Below, in pieces: positions 13-9,989 of a stretch of 15,109 nucleotides of DNA. Position numbers and translations under genes: made by a program. Position 1 is the first letter of the stretch, and the number at the start of each line of letters is the position of its first letter. Location: UHGV virus genome UHGV-0224297; one strand, given 5' to 3'. The notes beneath the pieces are model-generated. The model saw only the letters and a program-made list of their open reading frames with translations. It was not told where the DNA came from and did no database searches. This DNA is from a virus.

Positions 13-489
13 TTATAGCCCTAAGTGCGTGAGTGATAAAATAGGCTGTGTTTCACCTTTAATCGTCGCGAAGGAACGATACATTTCTGCGTTACTTGAA
101 AAAACTTCGTTAGCAACGATACATTCACCCGTCTCTAAAGAAAGGAGATAAATGTAGTCGCTCCATACGCTTTGTACCAATACCCACTCGAGCGCGGTGT
201 CATTTTCGCGTGTTGTCCGCAGGTGGTGAAAGTAAGGCCGGATTGCGTCAACCGCCGCATTAAAACGGCGATGATAAATTCGGGTTAAATCAAATGTCCA
301 GATTGTTTCCAGGTCAACTGGATGTAATGTGCGTACAGTGTCGATAATCGTCGACTGATCGTTAAGACGTGAGGCTTCGGCGATACGCAGCAGTTTCCAG
401 GCCACCGTTAAGTTGTGGCGAATTTGTTCAGGTTTAGCCGACAGGTCATGATGAAATTGCGCAGCTTGATAGACGTTAGATAATTGCAT
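13..489 (-). CDS. hypothetical protein (158 aa)
   Basis: Complete ORF with ATG at 487-489 and stop at 13-15. RBS CTAAAGGAG (plus 497-505) lies 7 nt upstream on the minus strand. Sits just downstream of the minus-strand terminator at 520-545. No recognisable motif. Confidence 0.7.
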   Translation of the reverse strand: MQLSNVYQAAQFHHDLSAKPEQIRHNLTVAWKLLRIAEASRLNDQSTIIDTVRTLHPVDLETIWTFDLTRIYHRRFNAAVDAIRPYFHHLRTTRENDTALEWVLVQSVWSDYIYLLSLETGECIVANEVFSSNAEMYRSFATIKGETQPILSLTHLGL

Positions 490-519
490 TTTAATACTCC
501 TTTAGGTAAAACATGTCGT

Positions 520-545
520 AAAAAAGGACCCCGGACATTCCGGGG
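520..545 (-). terminator. intrinsic terminator (minus strand)
   Basis: Hairpin CCCCGGA-CAT-TCCGGGG (529-545), followed on the minus strand by UCCUUUUUU (plus A-run 520-525). Lies 13 nt after the 558..947 stop. Confidence 0.7.
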
Positions 546-557
546 CCAAGACTACAC

Positions 558-947
558 TCAATGATCTAGTTCGATAGCACCAGCCATCTTGCCCCGTTCT
601 TCGATAACGATCAGATAACGGTCGCGAGATTTGCTTTTAGCGAGAGTTAAGACAACAGTAGGGTCGCACGTTTTCGTGGTGATAGGAAGAACCTCTCTTG
701 CAACGGAATCGAGTAGAAAGTAATAACCTGCGGGACACATCGTGCCGCCATCAGCTTTTACCAGAATATAGCGCCCGTCTGCGCCGACTTCTTGGCAGAT
801 TGTTTCACCGACTTCACAAACTTCAAACCCCGGAGGATTGTACTGGTAATCGGTATTGTTGTTTGGGGTTAGCAGTAAATCGTTAACTTGGGTAGATGCT
901 GCTACACCCAGGGAGAAGAAGAATGCTAAAGCGCAGATGAGACGCAT
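558..947 (-). CDS. small predicted secreted protein (129 aa), 4-Cys paralogue A
   Basis: ATG at 945-947 with TAAGGAG RBS 6 nt upstream. N-terminal hydrophobic segment MRLICALAFFFSLGVAAS looks like a Sec signal peptide. Shares a Cys signature with the 958..1368 product. Confidence 0.75.
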   Translation of the reverse strand: MRLICALAFFFSLGVAASTQVNDLLLTPNNNTDYQYNPPGFEVCEVGETICQEVGADGRYILVKADGGTMCPAGYYFLLDSVAREVLPITTKTCDPTVVLTLAKSKSRDRYLIVIEERGKMAGAIELDH

Positions 948-957
948 GAGTTACTCC

Positions 958-1368
958 TTAAATTTTAAGTTTATCCATAGCTACAACGATAGGTTTTTCC
1001 GAAGTGTCTAATATCCCTACCATCGGCACACCATCTACGACTTTGAAGAATGGTTTGTTGTTGCCTGAGCACAAATGTTTGTCGTTGTATTCAAGACGTT
1101 GTGCCTTCCACGTTTCAAGGTTGAGTACAGACATTGGGCTGTCGTAGCACCAGGCACCACCTTGCTCAACGATGAACACGTATCTGCTACCTTTGTATTT
1201 AAACAGGTTCTTCGCCTGGCAGTACAGACCGTCAATTTCCGTACAGTAGAAATCATCGGTGCTATTGACGTACTTAATACCGTCTGGCAACTGTATTGTT
1301 TTTGCTGATACGTTAACAGAGAACAGAATAGCAATTGCAATGAGAAGAGTGTTGATGATAGTTTTCAT
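958..1368 (-). CDS. small predicted secreted protein (136 aa), 4-Cys paralogue B
   Basis: ATG at 1366-1368 with AAGGA-type RBS. Signal-peptide-like N-terminus MKTIINTLLIAIAILFSVNVSA. Its stop overlaps the RBS of the next gene. Shares C-x(6-8)-CQ ... G-x-RY-[IV]-[LF]-[VI]-x-x-GG-x-x-C with the 558..947 product. Confidence 0.75.
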   Translation of the reverse strand: MKTIINTLLIAIAILFSVNVSAKTIQLPDGIKYVNSTDDFYCTEIDGLYCQAKNLFKYKGSRYVFIVEQGGAWCYDSPMSVLNLETWKAQRLEYNDKHLCSGNNKPFFKVVDGVPMVGILDTSEKPIVVAMDKLKI

Positions 1369-1379
1369 GATAAAAGTCC

Positions 1380-1865
1380 TTAGTATTTAGATTGTTCCGC
1401 GTATTTCTTAACCAGGTAAGCGAATTCAGCAACACCGATATCACCGAACCAAATCAGATAACCGGGGTCGATGTTGTAGTAATAACCGACGAGTTTCTTG
1501 GTGTGTGGGTTGTATAGCGTTACGATGTATTCCCAGCCACAAGCATTAGCTTTACAACCACCACTTTCAATCCAGATTTTGTTGTTGATGTTTACCGGAT
1601 ACATGTTACCGCCAGGGCCATCCATGTATCCTTTAGAGCCGAACATACCATCCAGTCCCACCGGGTCTAGTGTTTTATCAACAACGGCTTTAAATGACTT
1701 ATCGGTATCGTACAAGTCGTTGATGTTCGGGCACGCATTTGGCTGACCTTCCCAAGCGTTTCCGTCGCAGGTAAGCAATTCGTCTACGGAGGCCGCATCT
1801 ACAGTTGGTGTGGCACCGATAAACAAGAAAACCAGAAAGAACATCAGTGTATGTAAACGTTTCAT
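1380..1865 (-). CDS. small predicted secreted protein (161 aa)
   Basis: ATG at 1863-1865 with CTAAAGGAG RBS (plus 1874-1882). Signal-peptide-like N-terminus MKRLHTLMFFLVFLFIGATPTVDA. Four Cys in the mature part. Confidence 0.75.
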   Translation of the reverse strand: MKRLHTLMFFLVFLFIGATPTVDAASVDELLTCDGNAWEGQPNACPNINDLYDTDKSFKAVVDKTLDPVGLDGMFGSKGYMDGPGGNMYPVNINNKIWIESGGCKANACGWEYIVTLYNPHTKKLVGYYYNIDPGYLIWFGDIGVAEFAYLVKKYAEQSKY

Positions 1866-1883
1866 TGTAACTACTCCTTTAGA

Positions 1884-2270
1884 TTATTCGGCAGGGCGAT
1901 TTAAAGTAACACGGCCAATTAATTCGGCGTTATGAAAGAAGTCCACAGCGGTATAGTTACCAACTGATAGCGGATGGATACTAACTGACATTACTTTCGG
2001 TTGTTCGCAAGCAATATCGGTTAGACGTTGGTAGACTTGTGCACGGGTGTCAGCAATGAGTAATCCCGTACACGTTTCACCACGCACTAAACGATAAACT
2101 TGCAGTTTACCGAAACTGCGCATTAACGTGGGCGTCTCATCCGGGTTGATAATCGGTGACTCAGGAGCCGGTTCGTAATAGCGGACATCCGAATCACCGA
2201 AAGCATAAGTGCCAGTAATTCCGACCGCACAGAAAATAATGATAGTATAAAGTATAGTTCTGATATTCAT
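1884..2270 (-). CDS. small predicted secreted or membrane-anchored protein (about 128 aa)
   Basis: The ORF track starts at a GTG (2274-2276), but the in-frame ATG at 2268-2270 is the more plausible start. The RBS is weak (GAGTG). N-terminal hydrophobic stretch ILYTIIIFCAVGITGTYA could be a signal peptide or a signal anchor. Start codon choice is uncertain. Confidence 0.65.
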   Translation of the reverse strand: MNIRTILYTIIIFCAVGITGTYAFGDSDVRYYEPAPESPIINPDETPTLMRSFGKLQVYRLVRGETCTGLLIADTRAQVYQRLTDIACEQPKVMSVSIHPLSVGNYTAVDFFHNAELIGRVTLNRPAE

Positions 2271-2298
2271 TTTCACGCACTCTAAAAAAGATTAATAC

Positions 2299-2760
2299 TT
2301 ATTTGTTAGGACGGCTGTGTCCACAGTTCTGGAAAAACGTTTCGTTAAGGCGTTCGCCTTCTACGGTAAACCCTGCTGCCACGTTATCGTTAATAAGTAA
2401 ACTAAAATGTTTTGCCTCACCGACCGCTTTAATGAAATCCGCCCAGGCTTGTTCTGAACGGTCGCTACCGTCGATGGTAGGGATACGGTATTTTTTACCA
2501 TTCACGACAATATCGAGCGCGTTATCCTCAGCGTTTGTTGCCCCTGCAGGTTCTCCGTAATACCAAACATTGTGCCCGTAAAATTTACGATTGGCGGTTT
2601 CTGTACTGCAATTGATAGAGAGGCTGTTGCCTTCAGTGTCTTCGATTTCGTAGATGGCTTGGTCTGGAGACTGGATTTGTTCCCAGCTATTGATTGCTGC
2701 GTGTGCAGTATTGAGGCCCAGCGTTAAGAGGATGGTTAAAAGGGAAGTAAAAAATTTCAT
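2299..2760 (-). CDS. small predicted secreted protein (153 aa)
   Basis: ATG at 2758-2760 with AAAGGAG RBS (plus 2768-2774) 7 nt upstream. Signal-peptide-like N-terminus MKFFTSLLTILLTLGLNTAHA with an AHA-A cleavage-like site. First gene after the terminator and conserved element at 2810-2886. Confidence 0.75.
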   Translation of the reverse strand: MKFFTSLLTILLTLGLNTAHAAINSWEQIQSPDQAIYEIEDTEGNSLSINCSTETANRKFYGHNVWYYGEPAGATNAEDNALDIVVNGKKYRIPTIDGSDRSEQAWADFIKAVGEAKHFSLLINDNVAAGFTVEGERLNETFFQNCGHSRPNK

Positions 2761-2809
2761 TGTTTTGCTCCTTTAAGGCGTTAATGTATAAATGAGTTAA
2801 TCATAACTC

Positions 2810-2836
2810 TCACCTAAGTAATATATATCTGAAATT
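2810..2836. promoter_or_regulatory. conserved element copy 1 (core TAAGTAATATATATCTGAA)
   Basis: The 19-bp core at 2815-2833 is identical to 7179-7197, with similar flanks (TCACY before, WTT after). It lies between the terminator at 2856-2886 and the start of the second minus-strand cassette (2760). Strand of action is unknown. Confidence 0.5.
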
Positions 2837-2855
2837 ATTTTTAATGTTGACGAAC

Positions 2856-2886
2856 AAAAAATAAAAGGTGGGGGTAAACCCCCACC
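2856..2886 (-). terminator. intrinsic terminator (minus strand) ending the upstream cassette
   Basis: Hairpin GGTGGGGG-TAAA-CCCCCACC (2867-2886), followed on the minus strand by UUUUAUUUUUU (plus A-tract 2856-2866). Lies directly after the 2891..3469 stop. No U-tract on the plus-strand side. Confidence 0.8.
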
Positions 2887-2890
2887 GACG

Positions 2891-3469
2891 TTATACATCG
2901 AACCGATACTGCCGGGAGTTAATGAGGAACTCAGTATTCAGCTCAATCCATTCGAGTAATTCCCCCAACGGTAATCGGTTTGGGTTTTCTAACTCGATAG
3001 ATGCAACCGGATAAGAGTTTACTAATTCCGTAATCGCCTCAATCCCCTCTTGCGTTCCATCGTCTTCTAAGGTGATTGTAAACGGCATATCGGTACGTTT
3101 CGCATTAGGATTGTACAAACTGACTTTCGTTGCTTGCACAAACGCAGTCAGGTCGTCTCGCATAATGCGAATATCTGGCGCTAGAACTACCCAGAGATGT
3201 TGCCCTGGCTGGAGTTTACGTTTTGCGTAGTTTACGAAAGGACTTGCCGTCAAGTTCTCTAAACCACAACAGATGTTACGTAAACGAATTCCTCGCGGAT
3301 CTTTGTAATCCACGTCGAAAATCCCCACAGGTTCATTCGCTGCCCGCTTTATCAGAAAGGCTAATACCGTGTCCGCCCTTTCTGGTAAGGAAAGCCCAAC
3401 TCCCTCAAGCTCCCCATCGACGAGATTTTCCAACCAAACGTCTTTTCGCATTTCTATTAATCGGTACAC
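2891..3469 (-). CDS. hypothetical protein (192 aa)
   Basis: ORF with GTG start at 3467-3469 and GAGGTGG RBS 5 nt upstream. The first in-frame ATG, 18 nt downstream, has no RBS. Stop at 2891-2893 is followed by an intrinsic terminator. No recognisable motif. Confidence 0.6.
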   Translation of the reverse strand: MYRLIEMRKDVWLENLVDGELEGVGLSLPERADTVLAFLIKRAANEPVGIFDVDYKDPRGIRLRNICCGLENLTASPFVNYAKRKLQPGQHLWVVLAPDIRIMRDDLTAFVQATKVSLYNPNAKRTDMPFTITLEDDGTQEGIEAITELVNSYPVASIELENPNRLPLGELLEWIELNTEFLINSRQYRFDV

Positions 3470-3481
3470 GGTTCCACCTCA

Positions 3482-4255
3482 CTAATAATTAAGTTTTACA
3501 TCGGCAATAAACAGCAACTGTTTACCGTGTTGCTGCACTTCTTTCCAACCTAGCTTCATAGCAGCGTCAACAACATCTATCATGCTGTAACGAGACATCA
3601 ACGCGGTTGATTTTGTTCCTGACATTAAGTAGAGCGGCTCATTAGGGCAACGGTCGCGAGCATCAGGAAGTTCCCGAGAGACTGCTGATCCTTCGGGTAC
3701 GGTAACAACATGAATCACGGTAAATGGTCTCTTGTGGGTTAAATAGATACGAAACCCAACGTGTTCAGACTCATGAAAGACTTTCTTTACAACCACATCT
3801 TTTAGTGTCGTTTGAACATCAATCCCAGGTAATATCATGGATTCGCGAGAAACGAAACAACGACTATTTTCGACCGTGGAGAAATAATTACGTAACGGTA
3901 AACTGGCGTTATGATCGCGCAGTTTTTTGCTCAGTAGATCGAAGTTCAGTTCTTTAACTTTCTCTAGCCACTCTTTGGCTTGTTGAACGTAATAACTACC
4001 AACGGTGCGATAAGTTAATACCTTACCTGCGCTTACTTTCCAAAGTTTGATGGTTAGTGAGTTTGGCTTATAGCGACGATACTCACCCCGCGTATAGTTG
4101 ATGCGCTCGTAGCGCTCTACATCGTCAATCGGTGCAGATTCGACCGATTGTAACTGCAGCGTACGATCTAATCTATCGGCTAATAGTAGCGATGTTAGCG
4201 GACCTTCGATCATATACGGTTCGGTTTTAAAGATATCGTCTAAATGGACTTTCAT
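3482..4255 (-). CDS. GW-QLLF C-terminal motif family protein (257 aa)
   Basis: ATG at 4253-4255 with AAGGAA RBS. C-terminus LGWKEVQQHGKQLLFIADVKLNY. N-terminus MKVHLDDIF and internal LPGID ... GFRIY are shared with the 6069..6806 product. Confidence 0.75.
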   Translation of the reverse strand: MKVHLDDIFKTEPYMIEGPLTSLLLADRLDRTLQLQSVESAPIDDVERYERINYTRGEYRRYKPNSLTIKLWKVSAGKVLTYRTVGSYYVQQAKEWLEKVKELNFDLLSKKLRDHNASLPLRNYFSTVENSRCFVSRESMILPGIDVQTTLKDVVVKKVFHESEHVGFRIYLTHKRPFTVIHVVTVPEGSAVSRELPDARDRCPNEPLYLMSGTKSTALMSRYSMIDVVDAAMKLGWKEVQQHGKQLLFIADVKLNY

Positions 4256-4322
4256 TTCTATTTCCTTCTTAACAAAAGCCGCGACTAAAGCGCGGCAGTT
4301 AGAGAAAGTATATTTTCACTTA

Positions 4323-5474
4323 TTAAAGGTCAGCAACAAACAGTAGCTGACTGCCATACGGTTCGACAGATTTCCAACCGTAATCTTTACCGATCGTCGT
4401 TAAATGACTGGTAGTTAACTTTTTATCAATCGTCCGCAGATGTATCATTAGCGTATTGGACTCTGCCGCATCAAGTAACATCGCAGGTTCTTTTTCAGTG
4501 CGGTCGTCCGCTTTCGGGAAGAAACTGTAATATTGACTTTTGGGCAGATCGATTGACAACGTATAATTTTTCTTTGTAACGAATAACGCCATCCCTTCGA
4601 AATTGCAATCGAAACGATATTCCCAACCTGCTTCTGCTAAAACGTCTTTTAGCATTTCCATGACTTTAAGCTGATTAACACTAGGCAGTCGGTAAATTGC
4701 AAGACCACTTGGGAAAATGCGTATACCATCGACGACACTATCGGTGGTTTCGTCAATAAGTTCAGGATAACGTTGTGAGAAAATATGATCGCTCTTGCTT
4801 TTCTCTTCAACGTCACGAATGAATTGGGCTAATTCGTCTCTTAAGGCGGACATTTGATTTTCTCCTTTGTCTTCAATAATCAGGTGGGGTTCGCCGCTAA
4901 TTAAAATATGGTAAACGAGGTCGTCGGTAGAACGATAAGTGAGTTTGATAGCTTTATCACTTAACAATTCGTAGCGGAAGAAACTTTCGTACCAACTTAA
5001 GCCGAAATCGTTTTGTGTGAGTTCCTGCTCAACTTTGATGGTTTTTGCTTCAAAGCCGATTAACCCGCTTAATAACGCAAGTTCTGGTTTAGTTAAAATG
5101 GCCATGCCGTGAAAGGGCACTTGTTCAAGCTGAAAACATAAATTACTGACTTTACCACTTGGGAAGACTTTAAACATAATCTTCCGGCTGCTACTCTTTT
5201 CTCTAACAACGAGTTTACGGTAATTTAGTCCACAATTTGAGTAAACCGCGAACTGGTAACCTTCAATTTCTTCATCGTAAGTACAGACATCGACAGGCGC
5301 GATAATCTCATCGTATTCACTAAGTACACAGCAGCCCAAGTTATAACCAAACAACTCGCGTTGTAATGAAGACTCGATGGTTAAGCTTGGCAGAGGCCAA
5401 GTTCGATTATAGCATCTGTCCATCAGTTCTTTTAGGATCTTGGCATGTCCTGGTTTAGAAATAATATTTCGCAT
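4323..5474 (-). CDS. GW-QLLF C-terminal motif family protein (383 aa), with a second degenerate internal copy
   Basis: ATG at 5472-5474 with AAAGGAGAG RBS. C-terminus YGWKSVEPYGSQLLFVADL. A degenerate internal copy reads AEAGWEYRFDCNFEGMALFV. Confidence 0.75.
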   Translation of the reverse strand: MRNIISKPGHAKILKELMDRCYNRTWPLPSLTIESSLQRELFGYNLGCCVLSEYDEIIAPVDVCTYDEEIEGYQFAVYSNCGLNYRKLVVREKSSSRKIMFKVFPSGKVSNLCFQLEQVPFHGMAILTKPELALLSGLIGFEAKTIKVEQELTQNDFGLSWYESFFRYELLSDKAIKLTYRSTDDLVYHILISGEPHLIIEDKGENQMSALRDELAQFIRDVEEKSKSDHIFSQRYPELIDETTDSVVDGIRIFPSGLAIYRLPSVNQLKVMEMLKDVLAEAGWEYRFDCNFEGMALFVTKKNYTLSIDLPKSQYYSFFPKADDRTEKEPAMLLDAAESNTLMIHLRTIDKKLTTSHLTTIGKDYGWKSVEPYGSQLLFVADL

Positions 5475-5503
5475 TTTTACTCTCCTTTAGGGTTTTTCGT
5501 TAC

Positions 5504-6043
5504 TTAAGCAGGGTAAGCTAAGAATAATAACTGCTGGCCGAGTTTACGTACGGTATGCCAGCCGTGCGCTTTTGCTGTTTCTACTAATGTTTCCCAATCG
5601 TCAACGTTGCAACCGTCTTTTTTCAGTTTTGTAAGTAGTGTCTCTGCTTCTTTATCTGTCAGCAATAATCCTGGGTTACTTAACGTACACGTAAGAGGGT
5701 TAGGGAAATACGCGTAGCGTCTTACAAAAGTAAAGTCTACGAGATAGTGTGCTTTCCCCGTGTCTAGAAGCGTAACAACATCCACGCCGCCGTCGTAGGA
5801 CGCGCTCGTCACTTTCCATCCGGTACCGGAAAACAGTTGACTGAATAATTTGGTAAAGATATCCCCGGAACCGCGATAATAAAGCACAGCATCTTCGTTG
5901 ATTTTTTCTATTTCAATACCAGTGATCGTTGTACCCGGTTGGATAACGTTAGACAATATACTGTACGGGCTTTCAAAACGATGTTTACCCACACCCAGGT
6001 TAACAAACTTAATAGCTTGTTGTTTCATTTCGATACTAATCAT
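5504..6043 (-). CDS. GW-QLLF C-terminal motif family protein (179 aa)
   Basis: ATG at 6041-6043 with AAAGGAGAAA RBS. C-terminus AHGWHTVRKLGQQLLFLAYPA. An internal GW is also present (SGTGWKVTSASYDGG). Confidence 0.75.
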   Translation of the reverse strand: MISIEMKQQAIKFVNLGVGKHRFESPYSILSNVIQPGTTITGIEIEKINEDAVLYYRGSGDIFTKLFSQLFSGTGWKVTSASYDGGVDVVTLLDTGKAHYLVDFTFVRRYAYFPNPLTCTLSNPGLLLTDKEAETLLTKLKKDGCNVDDWETLVETAKAHGWHTVRKLGQQLLFLAYPA

Positions 6044-6068
6044 GATATTTTCTCCTTTAGGTTTTTAC

Positions 6069-6806
6069 TTACGCGGTTTTAATTAACAGCAGATAGTCCT
6101 TCGTAAACTCAGCACAACTCCACCCTCTCATCGTGGCGATTTTACGAAGATCAATTTTCTCGTGATATTTCAATAAGGGATCGTCTGAGTTAATCTCAAC
6201 CAGGTGGGTGGCTTTAGAAATCGTTTCCACATCTGGGATCTGTTTTGCTAAGTCGGATGCAATCAGTTCAATAACGCGGTAACCCTTTAACACAGAAACA
6301 TAGATGCGCAAACCATATAGCGTGCCCTCGTCTTCTAATGGACAAAGATCGATGCCGGGTCCAAGCAGTGATAACTCGACGTTATCGGGAAGGTTTTCTG
6401 CATTTCGGAGTAACCCTATCCCATTTCTAAACAGAGGGAAGTAAGAGAATAGTGGTGGTAAAGCCCAACCGTTCCCAATAAGCACATCATCGATACTAGT
6501 AGGCGTGTTCGCAAGAAGACGAATGTGGTCAGCCACAACTTCAAGTTCGGCATCACTGATCAACTTATAGATTAACATGACACTGGTTTCGGTATTAATA
6601 ACGAAGAAGACGCGGTTGGCGTAACTGCCTATCACGTATTCGTCAATCATACAGTCGATAACGTCACTGTCTGGATAATCTTCAGGTTTAATTGTTCCAG
6701 CATCGATTAACTTAGCAGGTTGCGATTGTTTTAATAGTTCGTTAACAACAGTAGAAGAAAGTTCTAAACTGGTGTTAGTAAAGATATCGTCTAATAATTC
6801 TCTCAT
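6069..6806 (-). CDS. GW-QLLF family protein, divergent member (245 aa)
   Basis: ATG at 6804-6806 with a weak RBS; first gene after the divergent control region. C-terminus RGWSCAEFTKDYLLLIKTA is a degenerate form of the motif. N-terminus MRELLDDIF and internal LLGPGID ... GLRIY match the 3482..4255 product. Confidence 0.7.
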   Translation of the reverse strand: MRELLDDIFTNTSLELSSTVVNELLKQSQPAKLIDAGTIKPEDYPDSDVIDCMIDEYVIGSYANRVFFVINTETSVMLIYKLISDAELEVVADHIRLLANTPTSIDDVLIGNGWALPPLFSYFPLFRNGIGLLRNAENLPDNVELSLLGPGIDLCPLEDEGTLYGLRIYVSVLKGYRVIELIASDLAKQIPDVETISKATHLVEINSDDPLLKYHEKIDLRKIATMRGWSCAEFTKDYLLLIKTA

Positions 6807-6901
6807 GATTTACTCGCTAATCTCAATAAAGGGGAGTCTATTATTATGGATTGCAGAAGAGGAATAAGGAAGTCACTACGTTCCTCTGGGAAGAGTATGT
6901 C

Positions 6902-6918
6902 GGTATACTACGTATACC
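6902..6918. promoter_or_regulatory. inverted repeat GGTATAC-TAC-GTATACC (7-3-7), candidate operator
   Basis: Perfect 7-bp arms with a 3-bp spacer. A third GTATAC lies at 6935-6940 and a GGTATCC at 6963-6969. A TATAAATA (T4 late-promoter-like) reads on the minus strand at 6924-6931. Confidence 0.35.
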
Positions 6919-7107
6919 TCCGCTATTTATATCCGTATACATAATGCCCCCTACCCCCTACCGGTATCCCGAGTAGCAGAATAAAGGGGCAGACTGTAAA
7001 ATTTTAGTACCTGTTATCGGAAGGTACTAAATGGAGTGTAGTCTTTAAGCCGTTTGAGCAGCTCATTGAGACTTTCTTTTTTAGTAGACATGATCTGTCA
7101 CCCCAAA

Positions 7108-7116
7108 TGGTATAAT
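7108..7116 (+). promoter_or_regulatory. candidate sigma70 extended -10 box (TGGTATAAT)
   Basis: Exact TGnTATAAT at 7108-7116 on the plus strand. No good -35 (TAGACA at 7085-7090 is 20 bp away). Would start transcription near 7123, toward the 7225 gene. Confidence 0.4.
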
Positions 7117-7143
7117 CAATCCGTTTCGAATGAAACGTGTCCG

Positions 7144-7172
7144 TAGGGACTGAAGTGCCAGTTCAGTCCCTA
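7144..7172. other. strong stem-loop (11-bp stem, 7-nt loop)
   Basis: TAGGGACTGAA-GTGCCAG-TTCAGTCCCTA. No U-tract on either side, so it is not a canonical terminator. Lies immediately adjacent to element copy 2. Confidence 0.55.
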
Positions 7173-7173
7173 T

Positions 7174-7199
7174 TCACTTAAGTAATATATATCTGAATT
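7174..7199. promoter_or_regulatory. conserved element copy 2 (core TAAGTAATATATATCTGAA)
   Basis: The 19-bp core at 7179-7197 is identical to copy 1. It sits 28 nt upstream of the ATG at 7225, next to the 7144-7172 hairpin, in the divergent control region. Confidence 0.5.
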
Positions 7200-7224
7200 C
7201 AATTCCGATCTAAGGAACGTCCCG

Positions 7225-8190
7225 ATGGAGAAATCCAGTGTTGATTTTTTCTCAATTGGTATCGTCGCGGAAGACAAACCCCGTGGTACAGATCGGGTAA
7301 AAGTGATACCAATTGAAACCAACTTTGCTAACCCTACCGTGGTGCAATCTGTTTCTTCAGCAACTGAAAAGACGCATGAAACATCTGGTGCAACAGATAA
7401 CCTAACCATTAAGACGGGTAACACGATAACAGCAAAGTGGTGGAAGTTTAACTCCAACCGAATTAATTCCCCTGACGTTAAACGAGAAGATTACGTTATC
7501 TTGTTACGTTTGGGGAAAACCGATATTTATTTTTGGATTGATCTGAACTTCGCTAACGTTAAGCGATTAGAGGATGCGGTTTATGCGTGGTCTGCTGATT
7601 CTGAAAACCAGATGGCGGATGACCTGTCCAATGCGTATGTGTTGAATATCTCGACGATTGACAAACATATCACGCTAAGAACAAGTATGGTGAACGGTGA
7701 GAAAGCGGCGTGGTTGTTTCAGTTTGATAATGCAAACGGTACGTGGCAGTGTGTTGACCATAAAGGAAACAAGTATTACATTAACTCGGTTGAAGATGAT
7801 CTCGGGTTTGAGAATGCGATGCTTTCAAAAGTGAACATCAACAAAGAAGATGCGTTCATTTATTCAAAGCGTTCTATTAACCTGGAAACGAAAACAATTA
7901 ATGAAAAATGCGAAGTTCGCAATACGGAAGCAGCGAAATCCGTTACGTTTAAAACGCAAACCTGGTTAACGGAAGCAGGGAGTTCGACAACATTTAAAAC
8001 GCCGAACTTTAAACAAGAAGGGAATGAAGCGATGTTCACCGGTAATCTGGAAATCGCTAAGAACTTCAAATACGGTGGTACGGGCAAAGGCGTCGGTGTC
8101 TTTACGGTTAAAGATGCCGTTATTTCTGGTATTACCTTTAGCGTTCACATTCACCAAGGTAAACATGGCCCGACATCACCTCCGCAATAA
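7225..8190 (+). CDS. putative baseplate central spike protein (321 aa; function tentative)
   Basis: ATG at 7225-7227 with AAGGA RBS (7212-7216). The N-terminal region (GIVAEDKPRGTDRVKV ... KWWKF ... DYVILLRLG) resembles, from memory, the OB-fold of P2 gpV-type spike proteins. The C-terminus VHIHQGKHGPTSPPQ resembles the His-rich metal-binding tip of such spikes. The coding call is firm; the functional call is not. Confidence 0.65.
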   Translation: MEKSSVDFFSIGIVAEDKPRGTDRVKVIPIETNFANPTVVQSVSSATEKTHETSGATDNLTIKTGNTITAKWWKFNSNRINSPDVKREDYVILLRLGKTDIYFWIDLNFANVKRLEDAVYAWSADSENQMADDLSNAYVLNISTIDKHITLRTSMVNGEKAAWLFQFDNANGTWQCVDHKGNKYYINSVEDDLGFENAMLSKVNINKEDAFIYSKRSINLETKTINEKCEVRNTEAAKSVTFKTQTWLTEAGSSTTFKTPNFKQEGNEAMFTGNLEIAKNFKYGGTGKGVGVFTVKDAVISGITFSVHIHQGKHGPTSPPQ

Positions 8191-9920: not shown

Positions 9921-9989
9921 AGCTCTTTTTCCTCTATAGATTCAAGTCATAGTATGAACTTCGACGCCCACGGACTATAGGAGTAGATA

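Follow-up and report, generated by a model that had tools for sequence, protein, structure and literature searches.

A conserved single-copy stem-loop element upstream of the spike gene of phiKZ-like jumbo phages: a candidate structured RNA

The locus upstream of the spike gene

The window, by which we mean the whole stretch of 15,109 nucleotides of the virus genome UHGV-0224297 that was analysed, carries a leftward gene array (13-6806, minus strand) and, diverging from it, a spike gene whose open reading frame (ORF) occupies positions 7225-8190. The spike ORF matches PHROG 3216, "baseplate assembly protein"; its product has 72% identity with gp095 of Erwinia phage phiEaH2 and ~61% with the homologue in SPN3US, and the homologues in relatives carry the annotation baseplate puncturing device. 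The source of the window is a phiKZ-like jumbo phage, kin of Erwinia phage phiEaH2 and Salmonella phage SPN3US. Phages of this kind are transcribed by their own virion and non-virion multisubunit RNA polymerases, of which split β/β′ genes are a hallmark (PMC7598289), and several such split genes are present in phiEaH2. The leftward ORFs are paralogues with a common C-terminal module. An initial annotation, made from the DNA letters alone, had described the 418 bp between the array and the spike gene as a divergent control region, a description that holds up, and had pointed to a 7-3-7 inverted repeat, GGTATAC-TAC-GTATACC (6902-6918), which both the sequence and a repeat finder confirm. The region is not wholly non-coding, since it contains a 25-codon ORF (7014-7091, minus strand) whose protein is conserved in sister genomes. 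Comparison with relatives identifies the inverted repeat as the stem-loop P1 of a conserved, single-copy, non-coding element of ~130 nt upstream of the spike gene (6862-6995, minus strand), which further comprises the hairpins P0, P2 and P3 and two C-runs that read as G-runs on the minus strand.

When the region was compared with a phage collection, megablast returned no match and blastn matched the coding part alone. As nucleotide searches thus gave no useful match, relatives were gathered via the spike protein. Sister genomes at 93-100% spike identity are present in IMG/VR and in metagenomes, and one of them, IMGVR_UViG_3300045988_113438, is a near relative of the window without being identical to it. 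Across the 13 sister-genome contigs recovered, the element hardly varies, and both of its flanks are mosaic. An alignment of the sequences upstream of spike spans phiEaH2, Stratton, Asesino, SPAsTU, SPN3US, SNUABM29, ChrisDB, Caitlin, Kwan, Phobos, Derbicus and uncultured relatives, and orthologous elements occur in at least six genera (Erskinevirus, Seoulvirus, Machinavirus, Wellingtonvirus, Derbicusvirus and the window lineage).

The order of the conserved parts, read towards the spike gene, is AAGGA-n-GTCG, the stem-loop, CTCCG, a variable spacer, C5-N3-C5, ~45-60 nt, CGTAAAAAAG, TA(G/A)TATGA, and the ribosome-binding site with the ATG. On the left of P1 lies GTCGG (6899-6903), the GTCG part of which is invariant in 15/15 aligned relatives, and on its 3' side lies CTCCG (6918-6922; CGGAG on the minus strand), invariant in the relatives' alignment (C74-G78). 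The C-rich repeat, C5-TA-C5 (6947-6958; G5-UA-G5 on the minus strand), has a single counterpart in the phiEaH2 genome, and its C-runs are invariant across the aligned relatives. It had been annotated as a CCCCTA tandem at 6947-6960; the repeat exists, its unit is the 7-mer CCCCCTA present twice, and the conserved part consists of the two C-runs, 6947-6951 and 6954-6958. The P0 hairpin, AGGAA-GTCACTACG-TTCCT (6867-6885), is common to Erskinevirus only.

Regular-expression searches of the complete 243-kb phiEaH2 genome found the hairpin pattern once and the G5-N-G5 pattern once. In IMG/VR, a stricter pattern recovered 12 jumbo-phage contigs with one site each, always upstream of spike, plus two obvious chance matches; a first, loose pattern, ATGTCGGT-N8-16-ACCTCCG, was abandoned because the matches listed were mostly chance ones. 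A covariance model, R1, built from 13 relatives, matches the window once (6885-6995, 84 bits) and phiEaH2 once (67 bits), finds weaker orthologous matches in the Derbicus clade, which lies outside the seed, and returned otherwise none better than E = 0.6. The element was not found in two more distant phages, pVa-21 and L185. Rfam 15 gave no relevant match, either for the window at E up to 10 or for 9 relatives at E up to 5, a tRNA/tmRNA scan found none, and literature searches returned no description of the element. Several other readings were tried and rejected. Short ORFs across the element are broken by indels in relatives, which speaks against a coding role, and the sequences gave no support for CsrA-like GGA motifs or a G-quadruplex. 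The cumulative GC skew of phiEaH2 tracks gene orientation alone and therefore carries no signal of a replication origin.

Complementary variation in P1

Because an alignment of all clades with MAFFT, analysed with RNAalifold, lost the register of P1 and predicted little, P1 was tabulated by anchoring on GTCG and CTCCG, and P2 and P3 were tested within one genus. Between the two invariant anchors we observed nine distinct stems, in which every pair is Watson-Crick: GGTATAC/TAC/GTATACC in the window, GGTGAC/CGTT/GTCACC in Erskinevirus, GGTATCC/TAC/GGATACC in SPN3US, GGTACTC/TGTA/GAGTACC in SPAsTU, GGTACCC/TCC/GGGTACC in SNUABM29, GGTAGC/AGGGAC/GCTACC in SNU6/10/43, CGGAG/TCA/CTCCG in other Machinavirus members, GTCT/9 nt/AGAC in Kwan and GGAT/9 nt/ATCC in L160. 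The lengths of stem, loop and stem vary as well (7-3-7, 6-4-6, 7-4-7, 6-6-6, 5-3-5 and 4-9-4), and Derbicus-type phages keep the flanks of P1 with the stem absent. Since the arms are always complementary though their sequence differs, it is pairing that is selected and not the GTATAC sequence, and selection on the ability to pair indicates that the element works as a single-stranded nucleic acid. The absence of G·U from ~50 pairs, all of them Watson-Crick, means that P1 itself gives no information on the strand. For the window stem-loop, folding energies are -3.9 kcal/mol as single-stranded DNA and -7.4 kcal/mol as RNA.

The inverted repeat by itself is not significant, because shuffled sequences often yield an equal one; the evidence lies in the conservation and covariation among relatives. 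A perfect inverted repeat (stem of at least 7, loop of 3-8) arose in 17% of dinucleotide shuffles of the region, the window holds 22 such inverted repeats in total, and the exact repeat pattern with at most 2 mismatches was found in 12/200 shuffles of the window. The three GTATAC within 40 bp were reproduced in 0/300 shuffles, but the inverted repeat itself supplies two of them as its arms.

P2, P3 and the preference for the minus strand

The third GTATAC (6935-6940) and the GGTATCC (6963-6969) of the initial annotation are both present, and each belongs to a further helix of the element. P2 (6927-6944, minus strand), a weak hairpin, UUAUGU/AUAUAA with one G·U, contains most of the third GTATAC; it is located between the G-run and GCGGAGG and has homologous helices in relatives. 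GGTATCC forms the apex, GG-GAUA-CC, of P3 (6958-6976, minus strand; CUAC-U-CGG GAUA CCG GUAG), which adjoins the G-run; the P3 loop of most relatives is GAAA, as in Machinavirus on the minus strand.

In an alignment of eight Machinavirus sequences, P2 and P3 together show 96.1% standard pairs on the minus strand, a value equalled in 1/500 shuffles and compared with 20-55% for slid controls; these figures overstate the significance because the helices were found on the very sequences, related to one another, that were used to test them. Two pairs are compensatory, and one position is seen as GU, AU and GC. Changes of this kind, compensatory or preserving G·U pairs, thus occur above controls, with the helices taken from the sequences on which they were scored. 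Read on the plus strand, the same helices have a lower share of standard pairs (81%) because the wobbles become A·C. Single substitutions elsewhere likewise keep pairing on the minus strand only, namely U·G in SPN3US against U:A in L182/Lh1B, and C:G to U·G in SNU6. The alifold energy for Machinavirus is -32.5 kcal/mol on the minus strand as compared with -10.1 on the plus strand, the mean folding z-score of 18 relatives is -1.41 as compared with -0.67, and that of the window -1.91 as compared with -0.86.

The 3' side of P1 on the minus strand is U-rich in most lineages. P1, or an extended P1 in which GGAGG pairs with a conserved UCCUU block, is followed by UCCUUUAUUCUUUU in 7/11 lineages, and a hairpin with a U-tract can be recognized by eye on this strand in Machinavirus, Derbicusvirus, SPN3US and Kwan. 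In L136, the minus strand has a UUCG hairpin after the element and ahead of the next early promoter.

The third GTATAC can also pair with the right arm and loop of P1 in an alternative 11-bp helix (6907-6917/6935-6945) with two U·G pairs when read on the minus strand, which become C·A on the plus strand. A terminator/antiterminator switch based on it was considered and discarded: the alternative is the minimum-energy structure only in a 70-nt context and is 6.3 kcal/mol worse in 161 nt, and the helix is lineage-specific, not being seen in relatives.

Promoter-like signals on either side of the element

On the side of the spike gene, late promoters of phiKZ follow the rule T(-3)ATG(+1), with the TATG overlapping the start site (PMC7598289). 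Late structural genes of the clade have TAGTATG(A/T) upstream, often with an A-tract, CGTAAAAA(A)G, just before it. The motif precedes spike, tail sheath, gp092 and gp137 in phiEaH2, and in the window it occurs at 9950 before the gene for a 1440-amino-acid (aa) protein. An A-tract followed by TAGTATG is likely to serve as the working late-type promoter motif of the clade. The window copy lies in a near-palindromic TCATAGTATGA (9947-9957) with TATG on both strands; the 1440-aa gene follows it by 34 nt on the plus strand and a 420-aa gene by 28 nt on the minus strand. It is a candidate bidirectional late promoter, and phiEaH2 has the same arrangement at ~81113.

The late promoter proximal to spike is decayed in the window. 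Where relatives have CGTAAAAAAG-N-TAGTATGA, the window reads GTAAAATTTTAGTAC (6996-7010, plus strand), that is, GTAAAA (6996-7001) and then TAGTAC (7005-7010). Sister genomes of the L127 type keep the proximal TACTATGA and read GTAAATTTTAAGTAATACTATGA directly after the element. In the window lineage, ~220 bp that contain the 25-codon ORF, two or three hairpins and an early-type promoter are inserted downstream of the late promoter; as the insertion lies downstream, every lineage has the element ~45-130 bp ahead of the spike late promoter or of what remains of it. P1 overlaps no promoter core. A TATG located 3 nt before P1 (6896-6899, plus strand) is confined to the window lineage, relatives having GATG, AAGG or AGGT; it is 326 nt from the spike ATG and the sole TATG from 6850 to the spike start codon, and could be a replacement spike promoter.

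The initial annotation had also seen a box resembling T4 late promoters. TATTTATA (TATAAATA on the minus strand) is indeed present at 6924-6931, but a role as a T4 late promoter is not supported, as the spacer containing the TATAAATA box is missing from phiEaH2 and different in other relatives, and the late genes of the clade are preceded by TAGTATG and not by this box. The multisubunit polymerases that these phages encode use promoter signals of another type. An extended -10 box, TGGTATAAT (7109-7117, plus strand), is perfect for host sigma-70 but probably fortuitous, since it is not conserved in sister genomes. The direct repeat AATAAAGGGG is real, with its coordinates corrected to 6825-6834 and 6980-6989 (the first assignment was off by 2 and by 1). 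Its left copy (6825-6834) is not conserved, even in sister genomes, and is therefore probably not functional.

On the minus strand, the sequence TTCAGATATATATTACTTAAGTGAA (7173-7197) points leftward and recurs, near-identical, as TTTCAGATATATATTACTTAGGTGAG at 2809-2834; both window copies are intergenic. In phiEaH2 there are five copies, all on the strand of early-type genes and each followed by a hairpin. Early promoters of jumbo phages have been described as AT-rich motifs of ~10 nt centred near -10 (PMC7598289). By its conserved AT-rich character and its repetition upstream of leftward operons on the coding strand, the motif at 7173-7197 looks like such a promoter, and TTTCAGATATATATTACYTARGTGAG is likely to represent the working early-type promoter motif of the clade. 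The copy at 2809-2834 falls in the gap between ORFs 2891-3469 and 2299-2760 and breaks up the leftward array into two or more early units.

The insert and the neighbouring genes

The 25-codon ORF of the insert, MSTKKESLNELLKRLKDYTPFSTFR (7014-7091, minus strand), is antisense in the presumed 5' leader of spike. A similar protein is encoded by different DNA in L127-L129, L177, L178, L180 and L184 (for example MSTEKKSGLDEVIELFKRYNPAIPR and MFAEQKDGIEEVVRLFRHYSPYLPR), and the ORF is absent from L126, L175, L176 and L179. The repeat finder places a 10-bp hairpin over its stop codon (7003-7031), followed by AUUUUAC on the minus strand. A terminator-like hairpin, CGTTTC-ATTC-GAAACG followed by GATTGATTAT (7122-7137, minus strand), was flagged by the scan and has a variant in L176 that pairs on the minus strand only; it lies immediately downstream of the early-type promoter. 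A third, 11-bp hairpin (7144-7172) has a covarying stem, with GGGACTGAA, GGAGCTGAA, GGGGTTGAA and GGGGCTGAA in sister genomes. Its 7-nt loop is found in both orientations, GTGCCAG in the window and CTGGTAC in L135, or GTGCGAG and CTCGCAC, and looks like an inversion polymorphism.

The gene left of the element differs from lineage to lineage. In phiEaH2 it is gp096 (L001 7506-7823), which, like its Seoulvirus homologues, directly adjoins the element and encodes a 105-aa protein (phrog_18565) of unknown function. This gene has no early-type promoter of its own in Erskinevirus and Seoulvirus and is absent at that position in the window lineage. We considered the gp096-type neighbour as a regulator acting on the element and rejected it, as it has no DNA-binding domain and several clades that bear the element lack the gene. 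More generally, no Pfam DNA-binding domain was found in the proteins flanking the region or in gp096-type neighbours; a distant or novel regulator may exist. Among the leftward genes of the window (13-6806, minus strand), several small proteins encoded between 558 and 2760 look secreted, with N-terminal signal-like sequences, and a paralogue family has the C-terminal motif GW..V...G.QLLF in common.

Discussion

The element upstream of spike is conserved and single-copy, its P1 covaries, and P2 and P3 pair better on the minus strand. We consider it most plausible, with a probability of about 0.45, that the leftward strand encodes it as a structured RNA, a small RNA (sRNA) or a leader, in which P1 is the hairpin nearest the 3' end. 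From 5' to 3', such an RNA would run through P3, the G5-N3-G5 tract, P2, GCGGAGG-P1-CCGAC and a pyrimidine- and U-rich tail. In most of the related genera, a small RNA of ~110-130 nt would end in P1 and UCCUUUAUUCUUUU, as its terminator or 3'-end hairpin. In the window lineage, the element would instead lie inside the 5' leader of an early leftward operon, laid out as the early-type promoter at 7173-7197, the 25-codon ORF, the element and a gene for a 245-aa protein, and P1 would act there as a structural, stabilizing or punctuating hairpin. That the element is transcribed, and from which strand, where its RNA would end and what it would do, we infer from these patterns of pairing and position. 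The early-type promoter found upstream of the element on the minus strand of the window fits this proposal.

Several observations weigh against a minus-strand RNA. No minus-strand promoter was identified for the element in the relatives that do not have the window's insertion. The window P1 is without a U-tract, its tail being AUACUCUUCCC, and was not flagged by the terminator scan. The z-scores are modest and the clades split ~3 to 2, Seoulvirus and Wellingtonvirus favouring the plus strand; G-rich strands, moreover, always fold better than their complements, and P2 and P3 were defined and tested on a single set of related sequences. The ChrisDB-type P1 contains one G·T on the plus strand, and two intermediates of the 7144-7172 hairpin also carry G·T there. 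Finally, the lack of G·U in P1 also fits a palindrome at the level of DNA, and a DNA-level role at the spike late promoter would account equally well for the fixed placement of the element with respect to it.

In kind, the element is a new candidate for something familiar, a phage cis-element or small RNA with conserved structure, rather than a new category. Like structured leaders and the terminator-ended sRNAs and attenuators of bacteria and phages, it has several short helices with compensatory and G·U-preserving changes, ends in a 3' hairpin with a U-rich tract in most lineages, as sRNAs and attenuator leaders do, and is placed, as leaders are, between a promoter region and the next gene. 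The window additionally has a short upstream ORF and an alternative pairing with the third GTATAC, which recall attenuator leaders. In contrast to known sRNA and leader families, the element has no Rfam match, and the alternative pairing costs ~6 kcal/mol in full context and has no counterpart in relatives; in contrast to intrinsic terminators, P1 of the window has no U-tail. A more novel reading, which we regard as doubtful, is that the element is a new gene for a trans-acting non-coding RNA (ncRNA) of ~110-130 nt, acting for instance via G5-N3-G5, or else a hairpin-dependent DNA signal for the phage multisubunit polymerases. If an ncRNA gene, it would be present as a single copy in at least six phiKZ-like genera and divergently coupled to the spike late promoter. 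The virion RNA polymerase of phage N4, a single-subunit enzyme, uses several hairpin promoters. The element resembles these by geometry only, with a stem of 5-7 bp, a 3-nt loop, conserved flanks and structure maintained over stem sequence, and differs from them in having one site per genome and in belonging to phages with multisubunit polymerases.

The fixed position is explained best, and the covariation worst, by a DNA-level element upstream of the spike late promoter, a reading that we consider rather unlikely overall. The conserved blocks AAGGAnGTCG, CTCCG and C5N3C5, together with the palindrome, would bind a phage factor or extrude a cruciform or hairpin, and so tune the non-virion RNA polymerase at the A-tract and TATG 45-130 bp downstream. 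Position and orientation relative to this promoter are fixed in every lineage, including the window, where the insertion lies downstream of the remnant; the left neighbour, by comparison, varies, and P1 is always fully Watson-Crick, as if both strands mattered. Further determinants are also to be expected from the literature, in which TATG alone fails to explain the specificity of phiKZ late promoters and additional regions or factors are anticipated (PMC7598289, PMC7618050). However, complementarity that persists without sequence conservation and with changing stem and loop lengths is hard to reconcile with a single sequence-specific binder of double-stranded DNA, the Derbicus clade has the flanks and no stem, and the G·U-compatible changes in P2 and P3 are left unexplained. 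Other late promoters of phiEaH2 (tail sheath, gp092, gp137) are also without the element. The clade's late motif itself, TAGTATG(A/T) before spike, tail sheath and other structural genes in relatives, resembles the phiKZ late promoters (T-3 A T G+1), with the differences that the proximal spike promoter of the window is decayed and that relatives have no TATG at the element.

The TATG at 6896-6899 raises an alternative limited to the window lineage, namely that it is the late promoter, that spike mRNA starts at G6899 and that P1 is a protective 5' stem-loop of a plus-strand leader. The surrounding GAGTATGT agrees with the late core TAGTATG(A/T) at 7/8 positions, this TATG is present in all genomes of the window lineage and in no other clade, and no further TATG exists from 6850 to the spike start codon, the window-type proximal promoter reading TAGTAC with its TATG lost; the G·T pairs of the 7144-7172 hairpin intermediates would also be accommodated on the plus strand. 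Nevertheless, this would cover one lineage, as relatives have GGATG, GGAAG or GGAGG at the site, and sisters of the L127 type carry the proximal TACTATGA alongside the distal TATG. It would moreover place A·C mismatches in P2 and P3 and implies an untranslated leader of 326 nt, and we judge it unlikely.

The initial annotation had favoured a palindromic operator at which a dimeric repressor switches between accessory and structural modules, as the perfect symmetry in the window, the 10 bp between half-site centres and the divergent intergenic setting would suggest. In its dyad symmetry within a divergent control region, P1 does resemble operators of the lambda/P22 type, and symmetric change of the half-sites could in principle reflect a co-evolving dimer. 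This interpretation has become very improbable, because the site is single-copy in phiEaH2, the window and the 12 IMG/VR contigs, its half-sites and their spacing vary in sequence and geometry, it overlaps neither the early-type nor the late-type motifs, and no regulator with a DNA-binding domain was found among the adjacent proteins. A scan for GGTATAC-N3-GTATACC was suggestive of a single copy as well: among the matches listed, three contigs of the window lineage have the site at this locus only. That P1 is a functionless chance palindrome, as its recurrence in 17% of shuffled regions might suggest, is scarcely credible, being contradicted by the conservation of the element and by nine complementary stem variants at one anchored position across genera.

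The motif at 7173-7197 on the minus strand is akin to the early, virion-polymerase promoters of phiKZ-like phages in having a conserved and repeated AT-rich core of ~10 nt followed by a 5' hairpin (PMC7598289); it lies next to the inverted repeat and is distinct from it. With it and the TAGTATG motif, the analysis supplies working early- and late-type promoter motifs for a clade with poorly defined transcription signals. Gene regulation in phiKZ-like jumbo phages is poorly understood, with few regulatory RNAs or cis-elements known, and the phiKZ-like late promoter is a 4-nt motif that is insufficient alone for specificity. Against this background, a single-copy structured element that is maintained across genera beside the gene of the cell-puncturing spike offers a concrete and testable handle, and, as both phiEaH2 and SPN3US are in culture, transcript ends could be mapped and compensatory mutants made.

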